Positions 8,931 to 27,890 are shown, counted from the stretch's first letter. The stretch is DNA of 32,000 nt from an uncultured delta proteobacterium (GCA_963708295.1 CAVPSJ010000014.1:319935-351934), one strand, 5' to 3'. Notes: generated by a model not told the origin, from the sequence alone. Made by a program: numbers and translations.

Positions 8931-8988
8931 CCTTCCGTTCCTCCTTCCTTAGTTTCTAAATGACCGAATTCTACCCACTCTTCTGCAA

Positions 8989-9015: not shown

Positions 9016-9036
9016 GTTTGCATTAACCCCAGTTGG

Positions 9037-9624
9037 TCATGGCGAGGAAGAGTTTTTTTCCACAAACCTCCGAAGGCTCTTTGGCATCGTGCATTCGGGG
9101 ACGAGCCCGGGTGCGGAAAGAGCCACCTCAACGGCCAGCTCAGCCCCTTTCTTATAAATCTCCCTGCACGAATTCTCCCTGTCGATCTTCTTGTAAAAGG
9201 GCCGAAGCATCGCGCAGCATTTCCCTCCCAGCTCTTCCTGAAACCGGTTGTGGAGATGGGCCGACAAACGGCTGATGCATCCATACCTGGGTCCCACAGG
9301 TCCTGTCCTACCATAGAGGATACCGAGGATCAGGACTCCGGAGGCCAAAGCCCCGCACATACATCCCGTCGGAGTTCCTTCCATTCCTGCTTCGTCAATC
9401 TTCACGGCTCCACCTCCTCCGTGGAATCCGGAGACCATCTTAGGAGGGGCAGGATTAACTTTTAGTTCGAGGATCTCTGCGACCGCAGCGAAGACGGATT
9501 CGCTTCAATGGTATCCCTGCTTACGGTTCAAATTGGCCAGCTGGCCTGCCCTTTTGGCAAGGGCGGCGATTCGGCGGGCCTTGATGCGATTGGCCGCAGG
9601 CGTTGTTTTGATCGGTTGCCTCAC
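9037..9624 (-). CDS. C-GCAxxG-C-C family protein with in-frame TGA (putative selenocysteine at codon 40)
   Basis: The track ORF (9037-9438) starts at MVSGFHGGGG, which is mid-family. Reading the same frame upstream gives GTG(9624)-RQPIKTTPAANRIKARRIAALAKRAGQLANLNRKQGYH-TGA(9507-9505)-SESVFAAVAEILELKVNPAPPK-MVSGFHGGGG...CGALASG...CCAML...C. The TGA sits where the family has its first conserved Cys (G-x-N-C-[AS]-[EQ]-x-V). The GTG overlaps the stop of the M24 gene (GTGA). The total of 588 nt is divisible by 3. Confidence 0.7.
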
Positions 9625-10883
9625 TTCAGCATCTCCTCTTCATACGGAAAGATCGTGAAGACCTCATGCCCCTTATCCGTAATGACCAGGTCCGATTCCA
9701 GGCGGACTGTTTGCTGAAGCAAAGGATGTCCGGCAAAGGTCTCCACGGCAAAATACATATTGGGTTTGATTTCAGCGGGATATTTCAGAGAATAGGCCCT
9801 CGAAATCCACATCCCTTCATAAAGGGTTAGCCCGATGGAATGGGCAAACTGCTGAAGGGTCACGGTTCCGTACTTGTCATCGTCGTAGAGAGGGAACTTT
9901 TCGGCCACATCCTTGCTGGTCTTGCCGGGTTGCATCATTTCAATGGCCGCCTGAAGGGAGTCATAGCATTCCTTATACAGGTCCTTTTCCTTCGGGGTTG
10001 GCTTTCCTTCGACCTTCCAGCAGCGCACATAGTCCACGAAATATCCGGAGGGTCCGACGGTATTATTGTCGATAATGATCAGATCTCCTTGACGGATGAT
10101 CTTGTCCGTGGGCCAGCGCCGGTAGGGGCTCGTGTTTCCGCCGGAGGCGACGATAATCTCGTAGACGATTTCGCATCCCTTTTCGTACATGTACTCGATC
10201 ATTTTCCCGGAAAGCTCCCGCTCGGTGATGCCTGGTTTGGCCCACTCATAACGCGCTTTATACGTACAGGCATCTCCAATGGCTGCGGACTGTTTCAAAA
10301 GCTCGATTTCATCCGGTGTTTTGATGACACGGGCAGCGGACATGGCCGGCATGGCGTTCACTACTTTTATCCCCTTCTTCTGAAAGGCGGCAAGCGAAGC
10401 CATATCGAGAGAATCGATTCCGATCTTTTCCTTCTCCACCTTGTGTTCCCGCAGGACTTCGAGAACACTGTCAACCATGCGATCCACCATGTATTCCACG
10501 GCCCCTTCGGACCATCTCCAGGTGATGGCCGGGCGGATCCTTCCTTCCATCCAGGGAAGGTCCATCTTGGCGCAAACAAGGTCGGAGCCGGCCGTTTCGA
10601 AGAGGATGGGCTCTCCCCCTCTCGGAAGGACGGCGTAGCGGATGAAGATGTTATATTTCCAGTTCCCCTGGAAAGAACTGGTCAGATAACGAATGTTCGC
10701 TCCGTCATATACGACCAGAGCCCCCAGATCATGGAGTTCCATCTGCTCCTTGGCTTTCGCCAGGCGGTCTTTCCGGAGCCGTTCAAAATTGACCCTTTCC
10801 TGCCAATCCGCACCCGTCAGGGAATAGACCCTCCGGGCATCGTACTCATGAGGTTTTCCGATAAACGAAATATCCTTTGCCAT
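9621..10883 (-). CDS. M24 family metallohydrolase (creatinase / Xaa-Pro peptidase fold)
   Basis: 420 aa. A creatinase-like N-domain is followed by a pita-bread domain with candidate metal ligands in DLIIIDNN, GYFVDYVRCW, FAHSIGL, FAVETFAG and VRLESDLVIT. Confidence 0.85.
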   Translation of the reverse strand: MAKDISFIGKPHEYDARRVYSLTGADWQERVNFERLRKDRLAKAKEQMELHDLGALVVYDGANIRYLTSSFQGNWKYNIFIRYAVLPRGGEPILFETAGSDLVCAKMDLPWMEGRIRPAITWRWSEGAVEYMVDRMVDSVLEVLREHKVEKEKIGIDSLDMASLAAFQKKGIKVVNAMPAMSAARVIKTPDEIELLKQSAAIGDACTYKARYEWAKPGITERELSGKMIEYMYEKGCEIVYEIIVASGGNTSPYRRWPTDKIIRQGDLIIIDNNTVGPSGYFVDYVRCWKVEGKPTPKEKDLYKECYDSLQAAIEMMQPGKTSKDVAEKFPLYDDDKYGTVTLQQFAHSIGLTLYEGMWISRAYSLKYPAEIKPNMYFAVETFAGHPLLQQTVRLESDLVITDKGHEVFTIFPYEEEMLK

Positions 10884-10937
10884 GTTCGTCCTCCTTCCCT
10901 TGTTCGGTTATTGAAATTTTGAAATCTCTTCTCAGGT

Positions 10938-11761
10938 TTATCTTTCCTTTCGCATCGAAGCCATAAGGGCTTCCTCTTCTTCCAGCATATGCTGTTTCAT
11001 CGCCTCGACTGCTTTCTGGGAGTCTCTCGCCTCTAGGGCGTCGTAGATCTTCTTGTGGGCGGCGAGGGCTTTTTTGGGCGACCAGGGGATGCGGTATATT
11101 TTGGTCTGGCTCTTTCCGAATGAGATTGGCCAGCATGTCCCAGACCAGGATGAGAACCTCGTTCTGTCCGATTTCTGCGATCAGGCGATGGAACCGGATT
11201 CCCGAAGAGATGAAGGCATCCTGATGGTCGATGTTCTTCTTCATTTCCTCGATGCACCACCAGAGGCTTTTCAAAAACGAATCGTTTATCCGTTTGGCGG
11301 CGATGTCCACCATCCCCACCTCGAGCATCCTTCGAGTTTGCCAGAGTTTGACCAGAGTATCCCGCTCGATCTGGAGCCGGGTTCTGAGGGAGATGATTCA
11401 GGGATTCGATATAGGGGAGGAAGTTCACCTCCTTGACATAGATTCCGTCGCCCACTTTGATTTCGATCAGGCCCATGACGTCCAGGATTCGAAGGGCCTC
11501 CCTCAGGGAGTGGCGGCTGATGTGAAATTGCTGCGCCAGGCTCCGTTCGGAAGGGAGGCGGTCTCCGGGGGTGTATTTCTTCCTCAGAATCAACGTCTGA
11601 ATCTGGTCGGCTGCATTTTCGTAGAGCCGAACCCGCCGGATGGGCTTTAACAGAATCTCGCTCTCCGGCTCCGGCTTTTTAGAGGGCGCCGATGGGGGAC
11701 GCGTTGGGAATCGACGGCCGATGACTTGATTCACATCGAACCCTTTCTTTTTTCCTCCCAA
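10938..11761 (-). pseudogene. GntR/FadR-family transcriptional regulator (wHTH + FCD) interrupted by two frameshifts
   Basis: The gene reads in three frames. The wHTH part (..LPSERSLAQQFHISRHSLREALRILDVMGLIEIKVGDGIYV) is in the 11033-11761 frame. The first FCD part (LQIERDTLVKLWQTRRMLEVGMVDIAAKR...FHRLIAEIGQNEVL) is in the 10846-11328 frame. The FCD end (AHKKIYDALEARDSQKAVEAMKQHMLEEEEALMASMRKER*) is in the third frame, with its stop at 10940-10938. The shifts lie near 11385-11397 and 11108-11120. The span is 2 nt longer than a multiple of 3. Confidence 0.8.
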
Positions 11762-11820
11762 GAAGTCACTGAGGGGAGAAGCGCGTTCCGAAGGGTGATC
11801 CTTCGGAAGACGAGGCGGTC

Positions 11821-11864
11821 AAGTGGTTAGACCAATTCATAGTACGGCTGAAATCTTTTGTCAA
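11821..11864 (-). promoter_or_regulatory. Sigma70-type promoter plus FadR-type palindromic operator upstream of the GntR gene
   Basis: On the minus strand: TTGACA (11864-11859), a 17 nt spacer, then TATGAA (11841-11836). The palindrome AATTGGT-CTA-ACCACTT (11837-11821) follows; its core TGGT-N3-ACCA matches the classical GntR/FadR operator shape. Confidence 0.55.
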
Positions 11865-11951
11865 GGGGAAAATCAGGCTTTCCCTCCGAGATGACGGCGG
11901 GGTGATTTTACGAGACCGGAGGGTATAAGCAGAGAGGATCGGGTGTTTGGT

Positions 11952-12934
11952 TCAGCCCTTTGTCTTCTTTCGGACCACTTCGTCCCAGTTGATGCTGTAC
12001 GAGGGCTTTCTTCCCTCCAGCACATCGACGGCGTTTTGAGCGGCCCCTTCAGCAAGCTGTGCCACTGCATCCCTGGTTAATGCACCCGTGTGCGGGGTGA
12101 GAATCACATTTTCCATTTGAAAGAACGGATGGGACGTTTCTGGGGGTTCCTTCGCGAAGACATCGAGGCCTGCCCCGGCGATCATTCCCTGCTGAAGGGC
12201 TTCGATCAGTGCCGGTTCATCAATGATCTCCCCCCGTGAGGTGTTGATGAGAAACGCCGTAGGTTTCATCCAGCTCAATTCTTTCTTTCCGATGAGTCTT
12301 TGCGTCTCGCTGCTCAACGGCACGTGGACGGAGAGAAAGTCGGACGTCTTGAACATCTCTTCTCTCTCTTTGGTAAACACAAGACCGGGAAGATGGAGAT
12401 CCTCGGGGTTGAGATAGGGATCGTAGCCCCAGACTTCCAACCCCAGGGGTGGCAGATGTCAGCCACAATTCTGCCGATCCTGCCCAGACCGATGAGGCCG
12501 ACCCTTTTTCCGAAAAGGCCCATGGGGCGATATTCGTACCGTGATTTGAAGTTTCCTTTTCGGACTTCTCTGTTGAGATAGAAGATCTGTTTTGACAGAG
12601 CCAGGATGAGCGTCACGGCAAGCTCTGCAACAAAACGGTCCTGGGGGCCCTTGACGCCGCACACCACGACGCTGGATTCCGTGGCGGCTTCGATGTCTAC
12701 ATTATCGAGTCCTCCTCCGGTCCGGGAGATCACCTCCAGATGGGGTGCTGATTCGATCATCGATCGGGTGACTTTGGTGGCCGTCCGGACGATGAGGCCC
12801 TGGACTTCTTTCAACCGTTGCCCCACCGATTCTCCTGAGGGGTCCGGACTGATCAGGAAGTCCACCTTTCCTTCGAGCACCTTGATGCCGGCTTCATCAA
12901 TGGGTTCTGCCAAGAGTACCTTTTTCAACGTCAA
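11952..12934 (-). pseudogene. D-isomer-specific 2-hydroxyacid dehydrogenase (PGDH-like) interrupted by one frameshift
   Basis: The N-part is ORF 12314-12934 (..VGLIGLGRIGRIVADICHP). The C-part is ORF 11952-12440 (LEVWGYDPY...FLSVHVPL...INTSRGEIID..ALIEALQ.G.IAGAGLDVF..EP......NVILTPH). The junction is at the run CACCCCTGGGG (12441-12450). The span is 1 nt short of a multiple of 3. Confidence 0.8.
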
Positions 12935-12958
12935 CCTCCGGGTCTTATTTGTTACCCT

Positions 12959-13132
12959 CTACAGCAATTGGTCCAGTAACTCCATGAGTTCTGGATCGCC
13001 GCCTGCGGGTGGAGACCAGTTCACATGGATCACCGCCACCCCCTGAATTTGCAGGGCTTCAGCAAAATCTGCCACTCCGATATTGACCGCGATCGGGCCC
13101 TGGTGAAGGAGCTCTTCCAGTTTATTTGGCAC
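12959..13132 (-). CDS. Small conserved-looking ORF (57 aa) translationally coupled to fdrA
   Basis: The GTG at 13132 overlaps the FdrA stop (GTGCCAAATAA). Product: (M)PNKLEELLHQGPIAVNIGVADFAEALQIQGVAVIHVNWSPPAGGDPELMELLDQLL. No family was recognised with certainty. It could instead be a frameshifted C-terminal extension of FdrA. Confidence 0.45.
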   Translation of the reverse strand: MPNKLEELLHQGPIAVNIGVADFAEALQIQGVAVIHVNWSPPAGGDPELMELLDQLL

Positions 13133-14687
13133 GAGTAACCTCCGAAAGACTTGATGCGAGGAGTGCACAAAACTGGGCCGCCTGAGCGCTGCTTGGGAAA
13201 ACGGCGACCCCTGCTTCTTCGAGCACCCTGACCTGCTGCGGAAAGTTCTGGGGGTCTCCTTCTGTTCCGCATATTGAAGCAACGACGCTGAGGGATCCGC
13301 CCCTCTTCTTGGCCGCGGCTTTGGCCTCCTGGATTGCCGAGACCAGCTCGCCAGCCGGGTCGGGGGAAGCATTGAAGCCAAGCACAAAATCGAGAAGAAG
13401 AATTGCCACTTGCGGGTCCTGGCCTTCAGCCAGAATGCGATCACAGCGCAGGCGGGAGTCAATCATGGGATGGGGCTTTCCAACCGTAAAATCATCGGTT
13501 CCCATGTCCACCAGGGTGTGCTCCTCACTTCTCATGGGATCGGCCAATTTCACATTTCCATGGAGCGGGGCGTTCGAGTGGACGACGATGCCTGCGTCTT
13601 GGAGAATCTGCTGGGCCTGGAAGCAAAAGGTGCCGCCGGCGAAGATTCCGCGGAGGTATTGTTGCGCTGGATTCTTATTCACTTGTTCTCTTCCAGCAAG
13701 CTTCTGCAAATTGGATGAATTGGCATCAAAACGCGGCGGAGCGTGACCCGTTACCCTTTGAATGGCCATGGCAGCAGCATCATCCAACGTGCGGGCCGTC
13801 TTATAAGGAGCATCTGCGGAGAGAGACCCTTGTTTGAGCCCCAGGAAACAAGCGACCAGGGGCTTTTGACACTGGCGCATTTTGGGAATGAGACTGGCAA
13901 GCGCCCGTTCTCCGGGGGGCTTGGACAAGATCGTGATGACTTCGGTCTGCGAATCGGAATCGAGGGCGTCTAAGGCGGTCAGGAAGGAGATGCCACCCAC
14001 GGCATTCGAAAGGTCCCGGCTGCCGATTCCTATGGCCTGAGAGATCCCCGAGCCCGCCTGATGGACGAGGGAAGTGAATTCCTGGATCCCTGTGCCGGAA
14101 GCACCGATGACGCCAATGGGGCCGCGACGAACGGCGTTGGCGAAGCCAATTCCCTTGCCGCCGATGATGGCTGTGCCGCAATCAGGACCCATGACCATGA
14201 GGCCATGCTCACGGGCATACTCCTTGAGGGAGATCTCGCTCTCAACAGGGACATTATCACTGAACAGGAATACGTTCAGGCCGTGCTCCAGCGCCTTCCG
14301 GGCTTCTCGGGCAGCATAGAAGCCTGGAACAGAAATAACCGCGAGGTTGGAATAATGTTGCATCGCCATAGCTTCATCAAGAGTGCGGATATCGTCCCTC
14401 GGAGCAGAACCCAAGTCGATCGTTAACCAGCGATCTATGTCCTCAAGCATTGAGGCGAGAGCTTCTTGGCTGTCCGCTTTGACCGCTACAATAAGGTCGC
14501 TGGGTGTTGCTTCCGAAATCTCCTGACCTCTTACTTCAATTTCTTCGAGCAAGACTTTGTTCTTTTCCGTTCCCATCAGAGCCGCCGCCTGCAGAATACC
14601 CTTTTGCTGGGACAGGCGCTTGGCCACCCGCATCAGAAAAACAGAATCATGATATTCGTTCTTTCGGATAACGTATCCCGTCACCAT
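13122..14687 (-). CDS. fdrA: FdrA family protein (succinyl-CoA-synthetase-alpha-like; AllF-type subunit)
   Basis: 521 aa. The N-terminus VIRKNEYHDSVFLMRVAKRL......AALMGTEKNK.LL and the CoA-ligase-like core (GPDCGTAII...GIIGASGTG) are typical of FdrA. SD GGAGA lies 7 nt upstream of the ATG. Confidence 0.85.
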   Translation of the reverse strand: MVTGYVIRKNEYHDSVFLMRVAKRLSQQKGILQAAALMGTEKNKVLLEEIEVRGQEISEATPSDLIVAVKADSQEALASMLEDIDRWLTIDLGSAPRDDIRTLDEAMAMQHYSNLAVISVPGFYAAREARKALEHGLNVFLFSDNVPVESEISLKEYAREHGLMVMGPDCGTAIIGGKGIGFANAVRRGPIGVIGASGTGIQEFTSLVHQAGSGISQAIGIGSRDLSNAVGGISFLTALDALDSDSQTEVITILSKPPGERALASLIPKMRQCQKPLVACFLGLKQGSLSADAPYKTARTLDDAAAMAIQRVTGHAPPRFDANSSNLQKLAGREQVNKNPAQQYLRGIFAGGTFCFQAQQILQDAGIVVHSNAPLHGNVKLADPMRSEEHTLVDMGTDDFTVGKPHPMIDSRLRCDRILAEGQDPQVAILLLDFVLGFNASPDPAGELVSAIQEAKAAAKKRGGSLSVVASICGTEGDPQNFPQQVRVLEEAGVAVFPSSAQAAQFCALLASSLSEVTRAK

Positions 14688-14726
14688 TCTATTTCTCCGG
14701 CTATCCTGACCGACCCTCCCTTGTAT

Positions 14727-14865
14727 CCCCTCCCGTCAAGGGAGGGGGAAATAAATGATTTCCCTCTCCCCTTATCCCTCCTTCCCTCCCTTTACAAAAG
14801 GGAGGAATTCCCCCCCTTTGACAAAGAGAGGTAACCTGCCTGCGCGAAGTCCCGCCTTGCGGGAC
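14727..14865. repeat. Cluster of G/C-tract hairpin repeats in the DUF1116 / fdrA gap
   Basis: CCCCTCCC-GTCAA-GGGAGGGG (14727-14747), CCTCCCTTT-ACA-AAAGGGAGG (14785-14805) and GTCCCGC-CTT-GCGGGAC (14849-14865). Same family as 3408-3500 and 4829-4868. Confidence 0.6.
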
Positions 14866-14966
14866 GAAGGCAAGGGGAGATGCTCTGAAACCTATGTTTT
14901 CTTTATTATGAACTCCTTGGTCATTTCAGGTTCTTCTATTCCCCATTCCGCATTCTGCATTTGCAG

Positions 14967-16232
14967 TTACGATCGGCCCAGCCCGTATTTTCGGCCAAAG
15001 CTCAACAGGGCCTTTTTGAAGCATTCCATTGGAGCGCGGACCAGCCCGGCTCCGATAATGGAATGACCGGGATTCTTATTGGCGATCGCGGTGTCGATGA
15101 TGGGAGCAATTCCTGTCTGGACCACTTTACGTATATCGATACCTACTGGAGCTCCCTGAAAACCAAGCACAGGCATGCGGTAATTGGGACTGGTGCTCAC
15201 CGTGATCTGACGCATTTCCCGGTTATACGCCATCGCCTCCTCGGGCGTGCCACCGACCAGACTCAGGATTCCTGGGGCACCACACAGAACGAGCCCGCCC
15301 CAACCTACGGTCTCCGTAATCGCAGAATCTCCCATATCGGCGCCTGCGTCTTTTTCGCTGTAGCCGGGCAGGTACAGTCCATCCACTTTCGGCGACGGTG
15401 CGGTGAACCATTCATCTCCAAGGCCGCTGACACGGATTCCAAACTCCGTCCCATTCCGTGCCATGGTCACAACGACGGTGCTGTGCTCAATGCCCATTGC
15501 AGGGTCCGCCGAAGCTTTACCCGACGCCATGGAAAGACCAAGGAAAATGAGTTCATGGTTCGTAATATAATTGATCGTACCCACCAGGTGATCTGTTTTG
15601 ACGCCCGTTTCAATCATCGGCGCCACCATTGCATTTGCAAATAGACTTGAGGCAGCCATGGATCGATTATGCAACTCATCCCCCATTTGCAGTGCTTTAG
15701 CAATAATGGGCTTGAGAGGAAGTCCTCCCTTTTGAAGGAGACCTTTTCTGAGCGACGGTGCCCAGACATCTCGCCAGAGGCGCAAGCCCTGTAGAGCCGA
15801 GTCGCTGTAATCGCCGAACTGCTGGCGTCCCTCCACCTGGCGACAGAAAGCCCGATTCGCAAAGGCTTTATTCTCGACGACCCACACGGGCATCGACCAA
15901 GAGATCGTGCCAGCCATTGGGCCGACCGCGTGGTGGTGATGATTGGGTTCAATCTTAATGGCTCCGCTCTCGAGGAGCTTCACTGCCTCCTCTTCGTTCT
16001 TGGCCCAACCTTCGAAAAGAACCACACCGATCATGGCACCCCTCTGGGCACCGCACATGTGCTGCCAATCAATAGGCGGTCCGGAGTGCAGGATCATTCG
16101 ATCTTCAAGACCCGGGATGACTTCTCCTGCGGGTGCAATATCGACCAGGACAGGATCAGCGGCATTGATCCGTCTCACGGTCTCTAAGTTGGCAGCTTCA
16201 ATCTTCTGTTTGATGTCTTCTGCAGGTGTCAA
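14967..16232 (-). CDS. ylbE: DUF1116 protein (YlbE / AllG-type subunit)
   Basis: The N-terminus ..IEAANLETVRRINAADPVLVDIAPAGEVIPGLEDRMILHSGPPIDW is typical of DUF1116. The track start is the TTG at 16271. The TTG at 16232 has a strong SD (GGAGGA 5 nt upstream) and is preferred. Confidence 0.85.
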   Translation of the reverse strand: MTPAEDIKQKIEAANLETVRRINAADPVLVDIAPAGEVIPGLEDRMILHSGPPIDWQHMCGAQRGAMIGVVLFEGWAKNEEEAVKLLESGAIKIEPNHHHHAVGPMAGTISWSMPVWVVENKAFANRAFCRQVEGRQQFGDYSDSALQGLRLWRDVWAPSLRKGLLQKGGLPLKPIIAKALQMGDELHNRSMAASSLFANAMVAPMIETGVKTDHLVGTINYITNHELIFLGLSMASGKASADPAMGIEHSTVVVTMARNGTEFGIRVSGLGDEWFTAPSPKVDGLYLPGYSEKDAGADMGDSAITETVGWGGLVLCGAPGILSLVGGTPEEAMAYNREMRQITVSTSPNYRMPVLGFQGAPVGIDIRKVVQTGIAPIIDTAIANKNPGHSIIGAGLVRAPMECFKKALLSFGRKYGLGRS

Positions 16233-16387
16233 CGTTCTCCTCCATTCGTATCTTTGACCTTCTCTTCTCAACCTCGCTTCCTTCCAGAGTCCTATTCCCT
16301 TTGCCTATCAAAGACCGCAATTCTAAAACTTTGAAGATATTCTCGCTCGCCCGACTCTCCCGATTCTTTCATAGCTTCAGGGAGAGA

Positions 16388-17368
16388 TCAGGCAGGAAGC
16401 GCACTCAATTCCCCTTCGACAAAGAGCATGCCGGTCAGCATTCCCGCCAGGATATCCCATCCGGATGTTTCGCCGATCCCGAGTAAGCGCTCGGTTTCTC
16501 CCAGGGTTCGACTTAGGTCTCGGCCATTCAACAATGACACGACCACATCATGGAGCGGTTTGGGTCCGTGGCCGAGGGCATGATCTCTGAGAATCGCATG
16601 GCTGATGGGATGGGTCTGTGTGGACGCCCATTCGATCAGATCCATGACAGGTTCGTCTTCCCAGCGGAAGTGCTGAGGGTACGCTGTCTTGAGCGCGTGA
16701 GCGGCGAAGAGCAGACCTCCGAGAAAATCATCTCCTGAAGGCGTCAGGCCCGGACCGAGGCCGACCAGTTCCCTGCTTCTCCGCGCCACCTCCGTCATAT
16801 CGAGGTCCAAACAGGCCGTTGTAAGATCAAGCATGGCATTGCGAGCTTTGGCGAGGAAGGGATCTGCGTTCGAAATCGCCTGCTTCTTGCCGCCCACGAC
16901 CGACGAAATGAGTGAAATCATCCGGCCGAGCCCTTTTGCGTTCCCAAGCCTCGTGACGGCCTCAACCCACTGGCGGATGTGCGCCTGAACGGTAGGGAGC
17001 GGCTCTGCGTTCCCCGGTCCGACGCCGGAGGGCTTCCATTCCGTTGCTGGCTCCAGATCAACGGTTGTTCCCTCCGGAAATCGTATCCACGGACCATCGA
17101 CGAAGAAGTTTTGGCCTACGCTAATAGACCTCGGCCGAAACGAAACCAGAATGCACCGCCTGTGCATGGCCAGCCCTTGCTGTGACATCCACAAAATTTC
17201 TCCGTCTCCGCTGACCAAGTAGACCGATGCAGAAAGAACAGCAAGCACTTTTCCTGAGAAACCATGCTGAGCAAGCAGGCCCTTGGCCCTCGATCCGATC
17301 TGCTTTGCATGATAGAGAAAAGGCTTCTCGTTTTCATTAAGAACAAAACAATCGGCAATAGGCTGCAT
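16388..17368 (-). CDS. ylbF: DUF2877 protein (YlbF / AllH-type subunit)
   Basis: Contains the GLGPGLTPSGDDFLGGLL signature that I associate with DUF2877. Its position next to DUF1116 and FdrA matches the fdrA-ylbE-ylbF arrangement. The ATG at 17368 lies 1 nt after the SBP stop; the track start at 17398 overlaps the SBP gene. Confidence 0.7.
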   Translation of the reverse strand: MQPIADCFVLNENEKPFLYHAKQIGSRAKGLLAQHGFSGKVLAVLSASVYLVSGDGEILWMSQQGLAMHRRCILVSFRPRSISVGQNFFVDGPWIRFPEGTTVDLEPATEWKPSGVGPGNAEPLPTVQAHIRQWVEAVTRLGNAKGLGRMISLISSVVGGKKQAISNADPFLAKARNAMLDLTTACLDLDMTEVARRSRELVGLGPGLTPSGDDFLGGLLFAAHALKTAYPQHFRWEDEPVMDLIEWASTQTHPISHAILRDHALGHGPKPLHDVVVSLLNGRDLSRTLGETERLLGIGETSGWDILAGMLTGMLFVEGELSALPA

Positions 17369-17369
17369 C

Positions 17370-18473
17370 TTACTTCGTCTGACCGATGACGCCTTCAACG
17401 AGCCAGTCCATTTTCCCCAGGGCTGCGATGGGAAATGCCTCGCCGGCCTTCACCCGCTCAACGCCTTTGTTATCCTTGATCGGACCCTGGAAAACATTCA
17501 GCTTGCCGTTGATAAATTCTTGTTTTTTTGTGTTGACCAGCTTTATTGCATCAGACGGGACGGCGGGGCCGAAGGGTGCGATGGTGAGATAATCACTCGC
17601 AAGGTTGCCTAAGAGGGCCTCGCTTTTCCAAGTCCCCTCCATGACCTGTTTGGCAAACCGGGTGTAGAGTTCACCCCAGGTAAAGGCAACGCCGCTGATC
17701 CAGCCCTTGGGAGCGAACTTTTGTACGCCGATGTAATGGTAGCCTACGGAGAAGGCCCCGCGCTTTTCAGCAGCCTGCACCACCGTAATCGGAGAGTCTA
17801 CAATGACACCAAGGACATCCACGCCTTGATCCAAGAGGGCGTTTGCAGCGGTCGCTTCCTTTCCAGGATCCAGGAAGGTTCCGGTAAAGACCACGCGTGT
17901 TTCCGCTTTCGGATTGACGGACTGCACTCCAAGGTGAAAGGCGTTCACGTTCGCCAGGAAAAAGCTGATGGGAAGGGCGACCACATAGCCCAGCTTATTT
18001 GTCTTGGTGGTTTTGCCCGCCGCAATACCCATCAGATAAAAGGCCTCCGGAGTGCTTGCCCAGTAAGTGCCCAGGTTCGGGGCGAGCTTGTATCCCCCGG
18101 GGTGCACAAACTTGACGTCCGGGTATTTTTTAGCCACTCTCAAGGCCGGATCCAGATAGCCAAAGCTTGCGGGGATGATGAGCTGGGCTCCTTGCCTGAT
18201 CATGTTCTCCATCACGCGCTCAGCATCGGCGCCTTCCGGGACATTCTCGACTTCGATCAGCTCGACGTTCGGAAGATTTTTCTTCATGACCTGCACACCC
18301 TCGGCATGGGCCTGGTTGTAACCGGCGTCTGCGATGGAGCCAATATGCAGGATGCCTACCTTCAATTTTGGCTGTGCAGAGGGTGTTCCTGTAAGGCTCA
18401 GTACGATGGCCACGACAAGGCCGGTTAAAAGAACCAGAAACGCAACTCCATTGTTTGATCTCTTCTTGTTCAT
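17370..18473 (-). CDS. BMP-family ABC transporter substrate-binding protein (PnrA/Med-like)
   Basis: 367 aa with a signal peptide. The motifs KVGILHIGSIADAGYNQAHAEG, VALPISF and FTGTFLDPGK fit the basic-membrane-protein (purine/nucleoside-binding) family. Confidence 0.9.
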   Translation of the reverse strand: MNKKRSNNGVAFLVLLTGLVVAIVLSLTGTPSAQPKLKVGILHIGSIADAGYNQAHAEGVQVMKKNLPNVELIEVENVPEGADAERVMENMIRQGAQLIIPASFGYLDPALRVAKKYPDVKFVHPGGYKLAPNLGTYWASTPEAFYLMGIAAGKTTKTNKLGYVVALPISFFLANVNAFHLGVQSVNPKAETRVVFTGTFLDPGKEATAANALLDQGVDVLGVIVDSPITVVQAAEKRGAFSVGYHYIGVQKFAPKGWISGVAFTWGELYTRFAKQVMEGTWKSEALLGNLASDYLTIAPFGPAVPSDAIKLVNTKKQEFINGKLNVFQGPIKDNKGVERVKAGEAFPIAALGKMDWLVEGVIGQTK

Positions 18474-18493
18474 TTTTTCCTCCTCTTTCTTAA

Positions 18494-18518
18494 TGGCTGG
18501 ATGTTCCAGCCCGTTTTT
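18494..18518 (+). terminator. Terminator-like hairpin oriented antisense to the operon
   Basis: GGCTGGA-TGT-TCCAGCC is followed by CGTTTTTT on the plus strand. It lies in the 5' leader of the minus-strand BMP SBP gene, and no plus-strand gene precedes it. Confidence 0.3.
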
Positions 18519-18583
18519 TGAAATTCTTAGTTAATATTCTTCGTTCTAAATTCACAGTTGGAAACAATTTTGTGATAAATCCT

Positions 18584-18901
18584 AAATTCAAAACTCTAAA
18601 CTCTAAATAAACTCAAAACCCAAAACGGACTAAAATCCAAAACTTTCAAATCGAAATATTTGATGATCTTGTAGAAAGTCGTCTCACCGGTGAAAACCGG
18701 TGTCCAGTGTTCTTAGAAGCTCCAAAATACTGGATGTGCTCGCTCGCTTCGCTCACTCCGCCTCCCTTCGGTCGCCCGGCTGGAGTTTACCCCGTACTTA
18801 TTACGGGGCCGGAATGACGAATTAGGTTTTTGCGACATTTTACGACTGCATCAAATTTGGATTTTGGGTTTATTTAGGGTTTGTTGTTTAGAGTTTAGAA
18901 T
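18584..18901. mobile_element. MITE-like foldback element (family 1), about 320 bp
   Basis: The terminal arms AATTCAAAACTCTAAAC (18584-18600) and GTTTAGAGTTTAGAATT (18885-18901) are inverted repeats (16/17). Further imperfect arm pairing runs inward (AAAATCCAAA/TTTGGATTTT, AGTCGT/ACGACT). The core holds perfect hairpins CACCGGT-GAAA-ACCGGTG and CCCCGTA-CTTAT-TACGGGG. There is no ORF. It sits inside the operon, between permease and SBP genes. Confidence 0.6.
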
Positions 18902-18956
18902 TCAAGTTCCCTTTTTATAGATGTTATATATAAATTTCCAGACTGAAACAAGTGAG

Positions 18957-19874
18957 TCATTCCGTCCCTCGGAAGATCTGGCCTAAACTGGCCGGCGCTG
19001 CATGCCGTCGTGCGCCGCCCCAGACCGCAAGAACTCCCAGGCTCAAAAGATACGGAAGCATGTCAAGCAAGAAGGGTGAGATGGGCACCCCCCTTGCCTG
19101 CATCTGAAGCTGCAGGGCAATCGCACCGCCGAAAAGTAATGCTCCGACGATCGCCCGGAGCGGATGCCACTTGGAGAAAATGACCAAAGCAACGGCAACA
19201 AACCCTCTGCCCGCTGTCATCCATTCGGCCCAAGTCTTTGCCACTGCCAATGAGAGATGCGCTCCTGCGATGCCGCCGAGGAGGCCGGCGATGAACAGTG
19301 CCTCATACTGCACTCTGTACGGATGCATCCCCGCGGCAAAGGCGGCCGTGGGTTTTTCTCCGACTGCCCGCAAGCTCAGTCCCCATCGCGTGTAGAAGAG
19401 TGCCCACCATACCAGAATGGCAATCGGGGTGACGAGGTAAACCAGTATATCATAATGGAAGAGGGCTGCACCAGCGACGGGAAGGTCTGAGAGGATTGGA
19501 ATTCGGATCTCATTCAGACCTTTGATTTGGCTGCCGATGCAGGGGGCGCCCAGGAGGGCGCTGAGTCCCACTCCGCAGAACATCAACGCCAGTCCGCTCG
19601 CCAGCTGATTTGCCCTGCGCTCGATCACCAGGTATCCGAAGATCAGGTTGAAGAGAGCCCCTGCCAGAGCGGCTGCGAAGACACCGAGCGCGGGGTTGCC
19701 CGTCTTGACCGTTACGTTGAAGCCCACCACCGCTCCCATGAGCATCACACCCTCCAGGCCCAGGTTAATGATGCCCGCCCGCTCACCGATGACCTCCCCG
19801 AGGGTGGCATAGAGGAGTGGTGTTCCGGCGACAATCGACCCTGAGAGGAGACCTTGTAACGAAGATCCTATCAT
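18957..19874 (-). CDS. ABC transporter permease (BMP/sugar-type, second permease)
   Basis: Polytopic membrane protein. The track ORF extends to 20258 over the upstream permease with an Arg-rich nonsense N-terminus. The ATG at 19874 (MIGSSLQGLLSG...) overlaps the upstream stop (ATGA at 19871-19874). Confidence 0.85.
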   Translation of the reverse strand: MIGSSLQGLLSGSIVAGTPLLYATLGEVIGERAGIINLGLEGVMLMGAVVGFNVTVKTGNPALGVFAAALAGALFNLIFGYLVIERRANQLASGLALMFCGVGLSALLGAPCIGSQIKGLNEIRIPILSDLPVAGAALFHYDILVYLVTPIAILVWWALFYTRWGLSLRAVGEKPTAAFAAGMHPYRVQYEALFIAGLLGGIAGAHLSLAVAKTWAEWMTAGRGFVAVALVIFSKWHPLRAIVGALLFGGAIALQLQMQARGVPISPFLLDMLPYLLSLGVLAVWGGARRHAAPASLGQIFRGTE

Positions 19875-20929
19875 TTGACTCCACCCTTTCCCCCCTGACG
19901 GGCAAGGACGACGAACAAGATGAGGGCGTTCAGAATGTTTACCGCCGAGCCTGGGAGCCCATGGGCCATCTGCAGAATGTCGCCGCCCGCCGTGACGATG
20001 GCAAGGAGAAAAGCCGCAGCCACGATGCCCAAAGGGTTTCCGCCGGCCATCCAGCTGATCAGGAAACCGATGAATCCATAGCCCGGTGAGAGACTGGGTC
20101 GAAGACGGCCTTGGATTGCAGAGACCTCGATCATTCCGGCCAGCCCGGCGAGTCCGCCGCCGATAAACATGAGCAGGATAACATAGCGGCTGATCGGAAT
20201 TCCATTGCGCCGTGCCGCTTCTGGATTGCCGCCGATGGCTCGCATCTCGAGGCCCCACCGCGTCCTGGAGAGAGCAAAATAGAACAGGATAAGCACGGCA
20301 AGAGGAAAAACGAACCCCCCATGGACTCGCGTGGAGGCAAAAGAGGGCAGGGTGGCGGCATCGACAAACTGGGCCGTCTGCGGGTAATTTGCGCTTTCCA
20401 GGTCTTTCCAGGGGCCAAAGACAAAGAAATTTACGAGCAGGATGGCCACGTAGTTCAGCAACAGAGTAGAGATGGTCTCACTCACCCAACCCTTGGCGCG
20501 CAGGATGCCCGAAATAGATGCCCACAGTCCCCCTCCGAGAACTCCCAGAAGGGAAATGAAAGGTAAAAGAATCCATGCGGGTAGGGTGTTTAAGTTGAGG
20601 GCTCCCCAGGTGGCAAATAAAGCTCCGATATAGAGTTGACCTTCCCCCCCCACATTGATGAGCCAGATTCTGGCCGGTACTGCCACAGCGACCGCTGTGA
20701 GCGTGAGAGGGATCATCTTCACCAGGATTTCAGAGAGACCGTAGGTGCTCCCGAGCGTACTCGAGAAAATATCCGCATAGGCTTTGATCGGGTTTTTGCC
20801 GAAGGCCAACAACAAAATGGCAAAGACTATGAAGGCAAGGGCAAAGAGTCCGAAGAACCGGATTGAGCTCGCCCACCCTGTGCTACGAAAACGGGGAACT
20901 TTGTTGGCCTGTTCAGCGGTGAGACCCAT
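19871..20929 (-). CDS. ABC transporter permease (BMP/sugar-type, first permease)
   Basis: 352 aa polytopic membrane protein. Its ATG overlaps the ATPase gene end by 17 nt, with SD-like AGGGGGG upstream. Confidence 0.85.
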   Translation of the reverse strand: MGLTAEQANKVPRFRSTGWASSIRFFGLFALAFIVFAILLLAFGKNPIKAYADIFSSTLGSTYGLSEILVKMIPLTLTAVAVAVPARIWLINVGGEGQLYIGALFATWGALNLNTLPAWILLPFISLLGVLGGGLWASISGILRAKGWVSETISTLLLNYVAILLVNFFVFGPWKDLESANYPQTAQFVDAATLPSFASTRVHGGFVFPLAVLILFYFALSRTRWGLEMRAIGGNPEAARRNGIPISRYVILLMFIGGGLAGLAGMIEVSAIQGRLRPSLSPGYGFIGFLISWMAGGNPLGIVAAAFLLAIVTAGGDILQMAHGLPGSAVNILNALILFVVLARQGGKGGVK

Positions 20930-22463
20930 ATTCCCCCCTGGAACCCGTCATCAGATAACCCACGTCGTTGAGGGTGAGATCGTGCGGCGTGCCCGTGCCC
21001 GCAATCCGCCCGCGAAATACAACCACCAGACGATCGCTTAGGGCGAAAAGCTCTTCCAGATCTTCCGAAATCAGGAGCACGCCAGCTCCCTCGTTCCGTG
21101 ATCTCCTGAACAATTCCCGCGCCGCGATCGCGCTCTGCACATCCAGACCCCGTGTCGGGTAGAAGGCGAGAATCAATCTGGGGTTCCGCGCCATCTCCTG
21201 TGCCAGGATCACACGCTGGAGGTTCCCTCCTGAGAGCGCTCCCACGGGTTTGTTCATGGAAGGGATTTCAAAGCCCAGAAGCGTCAAGGACCGCTCGATG
21301 TCATCCCGAGCCAATTTCCAGTCCATCGAGAGGCCACCCTGGCGGGCATACCTGCGGATATTACTGAGCGCCATGTTCTCTTCCACGGTCAGACCTGCAA
21401 CGGCAGCCATTCCCAGCGGATCTTCTGGGATGAAAGCCACGCCGCTCGATCGTATTCGAGCAACGGACCAGTGGGTCGCATTTTGACCCCACAGATATTT
21501 GGCCCCCGTTTCACACCTTTGCAGTCCCAGGATCACGTCCCCAAGCTCTTTCTGGCCGTTCCCCGAAACGCCGGCAACACCGACGATTTCGCCCGGCAGG
21601 ACGGTGAGATTGATTTCTTTGAGGCTTGTCGCTTGGTCCTCAACGGGCGTACTGACCTGCTTCAATTGTAGGAGAGGCGGAAGATTCTCTTGGGAGGGTT
21701 CACGCGGGCTGCGCGGTGATTCAGAGATTCCTTTGCCGAACATCAAAGAGACCAGTCCGTCCTCCGTTGCCTCGGAACCCTTAAGCGTACCCGTGACCTG
21801 GCCGCGGCGCATGACCGTGATCCGATCCGCGCAAGCAAGAACCTCCTTCAGCTTGTGGGTGATAAAAACCACGGCAAATCCATCGCGCCGCAATTGGGCG
21901 AAGACTCGGAAAAGTCCTTCGACTTCGTGCGGGGCCAAGCTCCGGGTCGGCTCATCGAGGATGAGAATCTGCGCATCTGCGAGCAGGAGCTTGAGAACTT
22001 CCACTTTCTGCTTCTCACCCACAGAGAGCCGCCAGACCAGGGCGGGAGGATCCACCTGAAGGTCGAATCGTTTCGAAATCTCTTCGATTCGTCCGATCAT
22101 CGCCCTCTTATTTAGAACGACGGGCAGGTTGGGCAAAAAGAGCGAAATGTTTTCAGTGACGGTCATTGCGGGAATCAGGGTAAAATCCTGGAAGACCATG
22201 CCGATCCGCGATTGCTTGGCGTCGTGAGGCGACCGAATCTGCAGACGCTGGTCTCTCAGTCGGATCTCTCCCGAGTCCGCCCGGTAAAAGCCGTACAAGA
22301 TCTTCATGAGGGTGCTCTTACCGGCTCCATTCTCCCCCAGCAGGGCATGAACCTCACCGCTGTAAATCTCCAGATCGACATGATCATTGGCGATCACGCC
22401 CGGAAAAGATTTAGTAATGCCTCGCAAGGCAAGGAGGGGGGAAGATGGAGTTTTAGCAGGCAC
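20913..22463 (-). CDS. ABC transporter ATP-binding protein, duplicated ATPase domains
   Basis: 516 aa. First Walker A GENGAGKST, signature LSVGEKQKV, Walker B LILDEP. The second domain has GVSGNGQKE, LSGGNLQRV and a degenerate Walker B. GTG start, with no clear SD. Confidence 0.9.
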   Translation of the reverse strand: MPAKTPSSPLLALRGITKSFPGVIANDHVDLEIYSGEVHALLGENGAGKSTLMKILYGFYRADSGEIRLRDQRLQIRSPHDAKQSRIGMVFQDFTLIPAMTVTENISLFLPNLPVVLNKRAMIGRIEEISKRFDLQVDPPALVWRLSVGEKQKVEVLKLLLADAQILILDEPTRSLAPHEVEGLFRVFAQLRRDGFAVVFITHKLKEVLACADRITVMRRGQVTGTLKGSEATEDGLVSLMFGKGISESPRSPREPSQENLPPLLQLKQVSTPVEDQATSLKEINLTVLPGEIVGVAGVSGNGQKELGDVILGLQRCETGAKYLWGQNATHWSVARIRSSGVAFIPEDPLGMAAVAGLTVEENMALSNIRRYARQGGLSMDWKLARDDIERSLTLLGFEIPSMNKPVGALSGGNLQRVILAQEMARNPRLILAFYPTRGLDVQSAIAARELFRRSRNEGAGVLLISEDLEELFALSDRLVVVFRGRIAGTGTPHDLTLNDVGYLMTGSRGEYGSHR

Positions 22464-22588
22464 AAAAAGTTTTTAGCACAAATTCCTTTTTTTGTGAATG
22501 GAAAAATTTCGGAAGGGAATTACCACGTTAAGAATGATGCCCCACTGCCGCTGCAGTCCCGCTATGGCGGGATTACAATATCAGGTTT

Positions 22589-22793
22589 ACCGCAGAGGCG
22601 CGGAAGTCGTTGAGAAAGTTTTTTTCTGATCCAATTGGGAGACGGCAATTGGATCAGAAACTGCTAACCTTCGAGCAAACGACCTGGACTCGTTGAAGGC
22701 CACGCGAGCGAGTGAGCGCCCGATCATAATAGAGTCACAGAACCCTTTTTGTTTGGCGGCCTCTCACCGCTGCGGCCTTTGCGTCTCTGCGAT
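22589..22793. mobile_element. MITE-like foldback element (family 2), about 205 bp
   Basis: Imperfect terminal inverted repeats ACCGCAGAGGCGCGGAAG (22589-22606) and GCCTTTGCGTCTCTGCGAT (22775-22793). A perfect central 15 bp hairpin TTTCTGATCCAATTG-N8-CAATTGGATCAGAAA lies at 22623-22660. It sits between arcC and the ABC ATPase gene. Confidence 0.55.
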
Positions 22794-22826
22794 GAGAATC
22801 CTATTTTGGACAAGGGTGAACGGGGT

Positions 22827-23771
22827 TTACTTTGTGATCGTCGTTCCAGCCTCGCCTTTGAACGCATTTAGAAGATTTTCAGGCGATGTGATGATCGCCT
22901 TTTCACCTCCGTTTTCGAGGAAATTTATGATGGCCTCGATTTTTGGCTTCATGGAGCCGGGCTTGAAATGACCTTCTTCCAGATATCGCTTTATCTCGGG
23001 GAGGAAGACACGACTCAGAGGCCGTTGGTCCTTCTGGCCAAAGTTGAGATAGACGGCATCTATTGCGGTAGAAATGATAAGCGTGTCCGCACCGAGGCCA
23101 TTCGCCATGACAGCAGATCCCCAATCCTTGTCGATGACGGCCTCGACGCCTTCTATTTCACCCTGTTCATTCAGGATCACGGGGACGCCGCCTCCGCCCG
23201 CGGCTATAACAATGTATCCCTTTTGCACCAATAATTTGATGACGTCAAGTTCGATGATTTTCTTCGGTATCGGAGAAGGGACAACCCGCCTGTAACCCCG
23301 GCCCGCATCCTCTGCAACCTCCCAGCCGAAGCCCTTTTTGTTAGCGAGGGCTTCTTCTTCGGACATAAACGACCCAATGGGTTTCGTGGGCCGTTCAAAG
23401 GATTTGTCTTTTCTGTCGACGATCGTTTGGGTCACGACGGCTGTCACTTTTTTATCAATTCCTCTTCTGTGAAACTCGTTTAACAGGGCCTTTTCGATCA
23501 TATACCCGATGGCTCCCTGGGTGTCTGCCCCGCATATATCCAGCGGGATCAGAGGCAGTTCGTTCCGGGACAGCTCGCCTCTTCGGTATATAAATCCCAC
23601 TTGCGGGCCATTGCCGTGGGTGATCACCAGGCGGACGCCTTCTGCAATCAGTTCGCCAATGTATTTTGCCGTTTCCTGGACCATTTCATATTGGAAAGAC
23701 AAAGCGATGTGGTTCTTATCCTTGATAAGAGAATTCCCCCCCATCGCCAAAACAGCGAGATGAGATCTCAT
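22827..23771 (-). CDS. arcC: Carbamate kinase
   Basis: 314 aa. The motifs AVLAMGGNSL, VITHGNGPQVG and GGGGVPV, together with the length, are diagnostic. SD GGAGG lies upstream. Confidence 0.9.
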   Translation of the reverse strand: MRSHLAVLAMGGNSLIKDKNHIALSFQYEMVQETAKYIGELIAEGVRLVITHGNGPQVGFIYRRGELSRNELPLIPLDICGADTQGAIGYMIEKALLNEFHRRGIDKKVTAVVTQTIVDRKDKSFERPTKPIGSFMSEEEALANKKGFGWEVAEDAGRGYRRVVPSPIPKKIIELDVIKLLVQKGYIVIAAGGGGVPVILNEQGEIEGVEAVIDKDWGSAVMANGLGADTLIISTAIDAVYLNFGQKDQRPLSRVFLPEIKRYLEEGHFKPGSMKPKIEAIINFLENGGEKAIITSPENLLNAFKGEAGTTITK

Positions 23772-23930
23772 AGGCTAACCTCCTTCTCGTTCAAATCCTC
23801 TTCATGTCCCACAAGGTAACGTGATTCCATTCGGGTTACCGATCTATTGTAGTATACATCCTTTCAAGACTTTGTGGAAGTGAGTGTTTCTGAAGGTAGG
23901 AAGGAGATAGGGCGTGCGAATAACACCTAC

Positions 23931-23939
23931 TTATCTGCA
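23931..23939 (+). promoter_or_regulatory. Copy of intergenic 9-mer TTATCTGCA (core only)
   Basis: Exact 9-mer in the gap between the NMT1-like gene stop and the arcC start. See the three longer copies below. Confidence 0.35.
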
Positions 23940-24023
23940 ATCGAAGCAGGTTTTAGGAATCGAGGATTTCCAGCAGAAATCATCGGGTGAAGTCGATATA
24001 TTAAAATTAAATCCAAGCGTTCT

Positions 24024-25034
24024 TTAACGGATAATATTCACCGCTTCGGGTTTTACTGCTTTGAGTCCATCCAGATAAATATAGTCCGAGAAATCAGGTA
24101 TTCTCCTTTCAGTAGTCAGTTTGTTCTTTATCATCCACCGCGCCTCGTCCTCCATTGCAACAATTAACGACTGGTCGAGCGAGAGAGAAAATTGATACCC
24201 TGACCAAACTTCTGCCATATACTTGTCATCGAAATTCAGTTTCTTCTGCAGCACCGCCTTTGCTTTTTCAGGATTACGACTGACATATTGTTCGGCTTCG
24301 GACAGAGATTTCAGCAAACGCTTCACCAGTTCGGGATGATGGGTCACCCAATCTGGTTTACCCACCAGAGTGCCGTAAGCCGGTTGGTGACTGTGTGCCG
24401 GCCAGACAAACAACTTACTCCCCAGTTGCTGGATTACCAGGTGGAGGTATCTACTACTGGCTATGGCAGCGTCAATCTTCCCGCTACTCAGAGAGTCCCC
24501 GGCGTCCATCGGTTGAATGTCAACGAGGGTTACGTCCCTTAAATTCAGGCCGTTCAACATAAGCAGCCTACCAAGATAGAATTCCATAATGGTGCCCGGT
24601 TCAAATCCTATTTTTTTCCCCTTAAGGTCGGAAATATTCTCAATCCCCCGTTCTTTTAGTCCTACAACAGCCACGGCCTCGGCCTTACTATAAGTTGTAA
24701 CGATGCTGATGGCTGTTTTTTGTAATGCTTTCCCGACGGTAATAAACTCCGTTGAATAAGCCAGGTCTGCTTCCCCACCCAGCATACCATCGGTTGCAGC
24801 CAGTCCATTAACATAAGTTTTGAGGGTCACATTGAGACCATTATCCGTGAAATATTTCTGCTCGTCAGCAATAAATATGAGCGTGTCCCCCGCGTTGGCC
24901 CCTGTTCCAATGGTAATGAGTTCCACCTTCCGGAAACAGCTATTTGGCGCGCGAAGCCACAGAACAAAAGCCGCTCCCAAAACAACGATAACGGCTGCAA
25001 GGATTAATAAGATAAGCCTTTTATTGGTTTCCAT
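24024..25034 (-). CDS. NMT1/THI5-like (SsuA/TauA-type) substrate-binding protein with an N-terminal membrane anchor
   Basis: METNKRLILLILAAVIVVLGAAFVLWL is followed by a periplasmic-binding fold (..ADLAYSTEF...DLKGKKIGFEPGT..). No cognate permease or ATPase is adjacent. The track start at 25139 (GTG) adds 35 non-homologous residues. Confidence 0.75.
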   Translation of the reverse strand: METNKRLILLILAAVIVVLGAAFVLWLRAPNSCFRKVELITIGTGANAGDTLIFIADEQKYFTDNGLNVTLKTYVNGLAATDGMLGGEADLAYSTEFITVGKALQKTAISIVTTYSKAEAVAVVGLKERGIENISDLKGKKIGFEPGTIMEFYLGRLLMLNGLNLRDVTLVDIQPMDAGDSLSSGKIDAAIASSRYLHLVIQQLGSKLFVWPAHSHQPAYGTLVGKPDWVTHHPELVKRLLKSLSEAEQYVSRNPEKAKAVLQKKLNFDDKYMAEVWSGYQFSLSLDQSLIVAMEDEARWMIKNKLTTERRIPDFSDYIYLDGLKAVKPEAVNIIR

Positions 25035-25159
25035 GATTGGATGTGACTCACCATGACCCTTTATTGATTTGCAGTTGAAATATACACCTTTTTCAAAAAT
25101 TAGGGAATAGAAAGTTACAGGAAGAAGTCCTCGGACCACCGGTTGAGGACTCCAGCTTA

Positions 25160-26676: not shown

Positions 26677-26700
26677 TTGTGGTTGCCTTTAAGATTCCCC

Positions 26701-27882: not shown

Positions 27883-27890
27883 AACATCAC

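Follow-up and report, generated by a model that had tools for sequence, protein, structure and literature searches.

A 32,000-nucleotide stretch of the genome of an uncultured delta proteobacterium (GCA_963708295.1, CAVPSJ010000014.1:319935-351934; hereafter the window) carries, between positions 11952 and 23771 and entirely on the minus strand, a block of genes for a carbamate kinase (ArcC), an ABC importer with a Bmp-family binding protein, the three proteins AllH, AllG and AllF, a 57-aa open reading frame (ORF) and a broken D-2-hydroxyacid dehydrogenase. Profile hidden Markov model searches against Pfam and NCBIfam confirmed all the families of the block, at the coordinates and in the minus-strand order given in the initial annotation of this DNA. 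The host is a sediment-type bacterium in which the import, triad (allH, allG and allF) and kinase genes are intact, and the named homologues of the window genes, 67-83% identical, belong to metagenome-assembled genomes (MAGs) of Thermodesulfobacteriota/Deltaproteobacteria. Both the enzyme family and its association with carbamate kinase were already known (2022-2024), as was the co-location of allFGHK with bmpA-nupABC (2025, PMC12625717); what is new is that the importer-linked triad constitutes a distinct, strongly supported, multi-phylum clade with a remodelled binding pocket, a free tail peptide and a dispensable dehydrogenase.

The 314-aa product of arcC (22827-23771) scored, over its full length, above the curated equivalog cut-offs for carbamate kinase (TIGR00746, 372.8 bits against 358.25; NF009007, 393 bits against 266). 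The importer genes display the complete BMP/PnrA-type (BmpA-NupABC) architecture, namely a fused double ATPase, two BPD_transp_2 permeases and a Bmp-fold protein. The NupA-like ABC ATPase (20913-22463; 516 aa) consists of two fused cassettes, each a PF00005 domain, and its top NCBIfam models were BMP-type and sugar-type double ATPases, every one under its cut-off. Both permeases belong to PF02653 (BPD_transp_2): permease 1 (19871-20929; 352 aa) has the same length in two other loci, L001 (ERZ25039515 contig_14963) and L090 (ERZ25039502 contig_65780), in which the 305-aa product of permease 2 (18957-19874) was also called. The start of permease 2 overlaps the stop of permease 1 by 4 nt, and a mechanically called ORF at 18957-20258 is over-extended relative to it. 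The periplasmic substrate-binding protein (bmp, 17370-18473; 367 aa; PF02608, 145.6 bits) has an N-terminus that reads as a Sec-type signal peptide with no lipobox cysteine.

The allH gene (16388-17368; 326 aa; DUF2877, PF11392, 68.8 bits) starts 1 nt past the bmp stop and has a 99%-identical 326-aa counterpart (P0271) in L090. It is followed by allG (14967-16232; 421 aa; DUF1116, PF06545, 245 bits), whose TTG start was inferred from the homologue P0001, and by allF (13122-14687; 521 aa), encoding an FdrA protein related to the alpha chain of succinyl-CoA synthetase, which contains PF00549 and PF02629 domains, scored 483 bits with NF004760 (cut-off 433) and matched PDB entry 3dmy (E = 4e-89). 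AllF, AllG and AllH are thus three co-encoded subunits in adjacent genes, as in an oxamic transcarbamylase (OXTCase). The 57-aa ORF (12959-13132) has a GTG start, belongs to no Pfam family and overlaps the allF stop by 11 nt; together with the 1-nt gap between bmp and allH this indicates tight coupling. The block ends with the dehydrogenase pseudogene (11952-12934), PGDH/glyoxylate-reductase-like, whose PF00389 and PF02826 domains are split over ORFs 12314-12934 and 11952-12440. As the initial annotation had stated, the allantoin pathway is missing: tblastn searches with E. coli queries returned no homologue of AllA, AllB, AllC, AllD, AllE or AllW in the 32-kb window, and none of the remaining large ORFs of the window encodes an allantoin enzyme.

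The tie between importer and triad was examined by neighbourhood comparison. At least 80 AllG loci were recovered from species-representative genomes by a scan with a 10-sequence AllG alignment. Counts were restricted to loci of at least 11 kb, 22 of them with an AllG at least 58% identical to that of the window and 52 with other AllG proteins, and presence or absence within 10 kb was scored by tblastn with the window proteins and the E. coli allantoin proteins; greedy ORF maps of the high-GC loci held shadow ORFs and were not relied on. A BMP importer was found in 22/22 loci of the window's clade against 2/52 of the other AllG loci, upholding the claim that it is tied to the triad. AllA-E were detected in none of the 22 and, depending on the gene, in 1-4 of the 52, flanking allantoin genes being sparse in AllG loci generally; within that distance the clade hence shows no association with a ureidoglycolate dehydrogenase or other allantoin gene. 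ArcC was present in 8/22 clade loci and 22/52 others, xanthine-dehydrogenase-like genes in 1/22 and 10/52, PucR-type regulators in 0/22 and 8/52, amidases in 1/22 and 5/52, and isochorismatases in 1/22 and 4/52. The BMP-linked AllG sequences formed a single clade in a neighbour-joining tree (bootstrap 40/40), with a minimum identity of 54% within the clade and a maximum of 53% to the rest. Its members are Thermodesulfobacteriota, Chloroflexota/Anaerolineae, Acidobacteriota (Holophagae and Thermoanaerobaculia), Spirochaetota and a Wenzhouxiangella MAG. The arrangement of importer and triad, recurring in all 22 loci and in several phyla, is not a matter of chance. Beyond these genes regulators alone recur, namely a MASE1-GAF-HisKA_3 kinase with a NarL-type (LuxR-type) regulator in Chloroflexota and AraC/GyrI-type regulators in Acidobacteriota.

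Relatives with 77-82% AllG identity keep the order ABC-perm-perm-Bmp-AllH-AllG-AllF-57aa. In three of them the 57-aa ORF is followed by ArcC and then by an aspartate carbamoyltransferase (PyrB, TIGR00670 above cut-off), as noted at 14325-15272 in L002 (GCA_040960625.1), 14354-15301 in L086 and 14295-15242 in L087; no ArcC/PyrB pair was found behind the 57-aa ORF in L088. Ornithine carbamoyltransferase was ruled out as the identity of the gene beside ArcC by the same TIGR00670 score. The pair may direct scavenged carbamoyl phosphate into pyrimidine synthesis, or may be an anabolic carbamate kinase/PyrB couple. A different layout was observed in a clade locus from a Dehalococcoidia MAG (L023, 7759-10000), in which Bmp-ABC genes are followed by an isochorismatase-family hydrolase, an amidase and then allG, with no match to allF or allH in the locus; it resembles the biuret/triuret-type clusters described for nitrifiers.

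The E. coli precedent invoked in the initial annotation is real: AllFGH has been purified as an oxamic transcarbamylase and is encoded in an operon with a carbamate kinase (allFGHK; Kim & Kim 2024, PMC11326118). The window holds the same three families together with a carbamate kinase and a tail module, also found in E. coli, and by analogy its products would presumably convert an N-carbamoyl compound and phosphate into carbamoyl phosphate and then ATP. Identities to the E. coli proteins are 41% for AllF (FdrA), 42% for AllG (YlbE), 31% for AllH (YlbF, C-terminal half only) and 36% for ArcC (AllK/YbcF). The gene order differs (allH-allG-allF in the window, allF-allG-allH in E. coli), the tail module is a free 57-aa ORF instead of the C-terminus of AllF, and the block embeds a BMP ABC importer and has no allB, allC, allD or allE nearby, unlike allFGHK. 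E. coli AllG falls outside the window's clade (the bootstrap value given above), with Paenibacillus and Tissierella loci (L062, L076) that carry allC, allD or allE. A second E. coli cluster, yahEFG-yahI-yahJ, comprises uncharacterised AllHFG paralogues, the carbamate-kinase-like YahI and the amidohydrolase YahJ. Window AllG is 44-45% identical to YahG and window AllF 41% to YahF, and the DUF2877 gene comes first in yahE-yahF-yahG, partly like the allH-first order of the window. The yah cluster differs in having YahJ and no ABC importer, in the fusion of its tail module to the N-terminus of YahG, and in that YahG groups with Firmicutes-type AllG proteins (52-57% identical), outside the window's clade. 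Window AllG thus neither shares a clade with E. coli AllG nor lies nearer to it than to YahG, which does not indicate orthology with the E. coli enzyme. The designation 'same triad' is accurate as to the three families, but the triad of the window is a separate lineage, marked by its linkage to the importer and equidistant from AllFGH and YahEFG.

A BMP-type ABC transporter co-located with allFGH and a carbamate kinase has also been noted in nitrifiers, where, in MAGs of comammox Nitrospira and of Nitrososphaerales, allFGHK and bmpA-nupABC adjoin genes for biuret/triuret hydrolases; these genomes have no upstream allantoin/purine genes, and the authors propose uptake of ureides from other community members (PMC12625717). 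The nitrifier loci carry BiuH/TrtA/AtzF-type hydrolases, whereas the window and 21/22 clade loci do not, the exception being the isochorismatase and amidase of L023. The one Nitrososphaerales AllG in our sample (L030) is 46% identical to that of the window and lies outside the clade. Neither the clade nor the binding pocket was analysed in that study, beyond which we found no literature on BMP transporters linked to ureides.

The closest solved relatives of the binding protein are AtzT (6pi5, E = 6e-87) and the Brucella protein 3s99, approximately 45% and 41% identical to it, respectively, over the full length. Ligands of AtzT include guanine (Kd 0.11 uM), adenine, ammeline and 2-hydroxyatrazine, and 3s99 was modelled with adenine (PMC6834077). 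The AtzT contact residues were mapped onto the window protein by sequence alignment only. The stacking residue Tyr45 (window Tyr52), the backbone-contacting Ser97-Phe98 (Ser103-Phe104) and Asn169 (Asn175) are conserved, while Thr139, Glu165, Trp194, Asn218 and Asn220 are replaced by Phe145, Phe171, Phe200, Ile224 and Asp226, respectively. Across the AllFGH-linked binding proteins of the clade, position 165 (AtzT numbering) is always Phe, Tyr or Trp and position 220 always Asp, with Phe, Trp or Met at 139 and Ile or His at 218. The residues that hydrogen-bond purines in the solved relatives (Thr139, Glu165, Asn218 and Asn220) are therefore not conserved, and the mapped pocket reads as an aromatic box with one acidic residue, an Asp. 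Because the aromatic residue at 165 and the Asp at 220 hold throughout the clade, a ligand differing from that of AtzT and 3s99 is likely, and a standard purine binder unlikely. No clade-specific basic residue was found by this mapping at or beside the pocket positions; the search turned up just Lys160, which, judging from where it falls in the sequence, probably lies well away from the pocket. The label 'purine/nucleoside-type importer' therefore stands for the BMP-type architecture and not for the purine-contacting residues, which are replaced.

These substitutions bear on the alternative that the block includes an ordinary purine-base/nucleoside importer, that the purines are degraded by enzymes encoded elsewhere, and that the triad and ArcC handle only a final oxalurate-type intermediate. 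Such a scheme draws on the guanine and adenine binding of the nearest solved relatives and on a link of the family to purine catabolism, suggested by the xanthine-dehydrogenase-like genes (10/52) and PucR-type regulators (8/52) near other AllG loci. It is nevertheless improbable in our judgement, given the loss of Glu165, Asn218 and Thr139 in the binding proteins of the clade and the presence of purine/allantoin catabolic genes within 10 kb in 0/22 of its loci.

The 57-aa ORF matches residues 514-554 of E. coli FdrA/AllF with 46% identity, and thus corresponds to the AllF C-terminal tail as a separate ORF. It is also homologous to the N-terminal extension of about 55 residues of YahG and of 475-aa AllG variants (P0125), and shares 70% identity with a 57-aa gene called on its own in L002. 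When the status of this module was scored over 84 loci, 22 of them of the window's clade, it was a free ORF in 20/22 clade loci and in 22 loci outside the clade, fused to the AllG N-terminus in 19, fused to the AllF C-terminus in four (E. coli included) and contained within an AllF-AllG fusion in six. The ORF is thus a real, detached C-terminal tail module of AllF, and the module appears to be a mobile linker or docking element between AllF and AllG. Since the tail is free in the window's lineage, the predicted enzyme would be composed of four polypeptides, all of which would be needed for its reconstitution.

The dehydrogenase had been described as frameshifted, which is correct, and had been assigned an oxidation step, which is not supported. 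The contig L090, 99.3-99.7% identical to window positions 6240-25114, has both the dehydrogenase (325 aa) and the GntR regulator (265 aa) intact; relative to it, the window dehydrogenase has a 1-nt deletion at approximately 12449, and its domains no longer lie intact in one frame. Adjoining it, a GntR/FCD pseudogene (about 10950-11734, minus strand) has two or three 1-nt insertions (11396, 11116, 10952) relative to L090 and L001, in both of which the 265-aa gene is intact. Of the 13 small indels between the window and L090, one falls in the dehydrogenase, two or three in the GntR gene and the others in intergenic DNA; the remaining coding sequence, which amounts to about 15 kb or approximately 81% of what was aligned and includes the importer, triad and kinase genes, has none. 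Random sequencing error was ruled out by this distribution, the chance of which we roughly estimate at 1e-9; the confinement of the indels to the two genes and to intergenic DNA therefore marks real lesions. The dehydrogenase and GntR genes are under relaxed selection, and the importer, triad and kinase are kept intact by purifying selection.

Among the clade loci, only the window, L001 and L090 have the dehydrogenase, which is missing from the other 19-20 and was not found in the relatives L002, L086, L087 and L088. It is a lineage-specific appendage, dispensable and, judging from its broken frame, inactive in the window strain. Its restriction to one sublineage and its decay here therefore place oxidation outside the conserved mechanism, with a lineage-specific add-on as a possible role. 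The fuller proposal would have a 2-hydroxy ureide (e.g. ureidoglycolate) imported, oxidised to oxalurate by the PGDH-like dehydrogenase acting as a non-orthologous replacement of AllD, and passed to AllFGH and ArcC. The gene does lie on the same strand about 25 nt past the 57-aa ORF and is intact in L001 and L090, and by our stereochemical reasoning the D-lactate-like geometry of (S)-ureidoglycolate would suit a D-specific enzyme. Against this stand its narrow distribution, the genuine frameshift beside core genes free of indels, and NCBIfam scores far under every equivalog cut-off, which indicate no specific function, so that we give the proposal little credence.

Compared with L001, to which its nucleotide identity is 84-91%, the window contains extra intergenic DNA at four junctions. 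About 300 bp lie between arcC and the ATPase gene (22524-22826), absent from L001 (88% identical) and present in the conspecific L090; this insert contains a hairpin with a perfect 13-bp stem (TCTGATCCAATTG...CAATTGGATCAGA). About 400 bp are added between permease 2 and bmp, including a MITE-like (miniature inverted-repeat transposable element-like) insert at 18578-18902 with 47-nt imperfect terminal inverted repeats (81% complementary). The spacer that holds it (18474-18956) measures 483 bp in the window, 79 bp in L001 and 281 bp in L090, which is without 18544-18743. A 28-mer from the MITE-like repeat had two exact matches in metagenome contigs, both in unrelated contexts. Approximately 107 bp are added at the allH/allG junction and 150 bp at the allG/allF junction. 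REP-like (repetitive extragenic palindrome-like) G/C-rich palindromes, CCCTCCC...GGGAGGG, occur in the intergenic spacers at 3405-3441, 3470-3500 and 14714-14816, the allG/allF hairpin being inside a stretch of about 145 bp that is missing from L090. Two of the four inserts are polymorphic even in comparison with L090. A promoter/terminator consensus scan of 11700-24200 gave counts not above those of shuffled sequence, and no RNA family was detected over the whole window at Rfam gathering thresholds.

Upstream of arcC are genes for an NMT1-type binding protein, a nitroreductase, a PAS histidine kinase, three KaiB proteins and KaiC. The last of these form, at 26338-30330 on the minus strand and just upstream of the block, a Kai-type cluster in a non-cyanobacterial genome, with KaiC (581 aa), three KaiB paralogues (108, 113 and 112 aa) and the histidine kinase (PAS-HisKA_3). 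Downstream, past the GntR/FCD regulator, a second conserved block (481-10883, minus strand), syntenic in L001 and L090, encodes an M24 creatinase/prolidase-like hydrolase, a C_GCAxxG_C_C protein, a LIV-type ABC system, a PEP-hydrolase-like TIM-barrel protein and a UPF0261 protein; the LIV-type system includes two paralogous binding proteins whose genes share 79% nucleotide identity over 300 nt.

On balance we favour, with some reserve, the reading of the block as a self-contained uptake-and-phosphorolysis module. From the gene content, the conserved linkage, the separation of the clade and the pocket changes, all of them observed, we infer an imported compound, carbamoyl-phosphate-forming chemistry in the clade and a net gain of ATP. 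The periplasmic BMP-family protein and its ABC translocator would import, with high affinity, an exogenous N-carbamoyl compound of the acyl-urea or ureide type. By analogy with the E. coli enzyme, a four-polypeptide carbamoyltransferase made of AllF with its 57-aa tail, AllG and AllH would then split this compound with phosphate into carbamoyl phosphate and a de-carbamoylated amide or amine. ArcC would use carbamoyl phosphate and ADP to yield ATP, NH3 and CO2, and in some relatives PyrB could offer an alternative sink by drawing carbamoyl phosphate into pyrimidine synthesis. The co-product would leave the cell, as oxamate does in E. coli, or be dealt with elsewhere, which fits the absence of further conserved enzymes. 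The recurrence of regulators alone fits direct use of the substrate after import, and the ArcC found here, as well as the ArcC and PyrB of relatives, is consistent with formation of carbamoyl phosphate. Of the route originally envisaged, import, phosphorolysis and ATP formation are therefore supported and oxidation is not.

Several observations weigh against this module. AllG and AllF share just 41-42% identity with their characterised E. coli counterparts and are, by sequence, equally close to YahFG. ArcC is not adjacent in 14/22 clade loci, and the ArcC-PyrB pair could be an anabolic one unrelated to the triad. The solved proteins most closely related to the binding protein are guanine and adenine binders, and the mapped pocket, with no conserved basic residue, is not obviously suited to the oxalurate anion. 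Finally, the arcC/ATPase and permease 2/bmp junctions are widened by inserts of about 300-400 bp, leaving co-transcription of the whole block putative.

As to the substrate of the proposed module, oxalurate, the sole one demonstrated for the enzyme family, is the default but tentative candidate; a ureide other than oxalurate is about equally likely, since enzyme and binding protein belong to a lineage separate from E. coli AllFGH and their specificity may differ. It is conceivable, if speculative, that the BMP-linked carbamoyltransferases act on a scavenged neutral or cationic ureide or acyl-urea, cleaved with phosphate instead of water. Candidates for capture by the aromatic-box-plus-Asp protein would include biuret, triuret, guanylurea, hydantoin-derived ureides and carbamoylated heterocycles. 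If that were true, many anaerobes in several phyla would obtain ATP from a compound that undergoes only hydrolysis in known pathways.

AllH offers no mechanistic constraint on this chemistry, as it has no solved structural relative. Its AlphaFold2 (AF2) model (pLDDT 88.8) combines a beta-barrel with an all-alpha domain and had no significant match among PDB folds (best E 0.09, query TM <=0.16), and a profile search of PDB sequences found nothing. A ribokinase-like phosphate-binding role, considered from the motif GPGLTPSGDDFLGG, was ruled out by the different AF2 fold and the lack of a significant PDB match. That the triad is not a carbamoyltransferase here but an FdrA-type acyl-CoA-synthetase-like or other enzyme, with ArcC a bystander or the anabolic partner of PyrB, would accord with this unconstraining fold, with the NCBIfam name 'acyl-CoA synthetase' for FdrA, with the CoA-binding and CoA-ligase domains of AllF and with the 14/22 clade neighbourhoods without ArcC, but it is very doubtful, since the only family member with purified-enzyme data is a carbamoyltransferase (PMC11326118), near-invariant AllG residues are common to E. 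coli AllG and the clade, and ArcC and PyrB recur beside the triad in the clade, as does ArcC in 22/52 other loci.

The function of AllFGH was assigned only in 2024 and only in E. coli, as the end of anaerobic allantoin breakdown. In the sampled loci, a large sister lineage is invariably accompanied by a predicted high-affinity importer of its own and occurs without the allantoin pathway. This suggests cross-feeding in anoxic sediments, soils and digesters, in which each molecule of a small carbamoylated nitrogen compound would provide one ATP and ammonia. Naming that compound would extend the short list of substrate-level phosphorylations of this kind, which comprises the arginine deiminase, agmatine deiminase and allantoin/oxalurate pathways, and would correct the blanket 'oxamate carbamoyltransferase' and 'nucleoside transporter' annotations that are spreading in databases.

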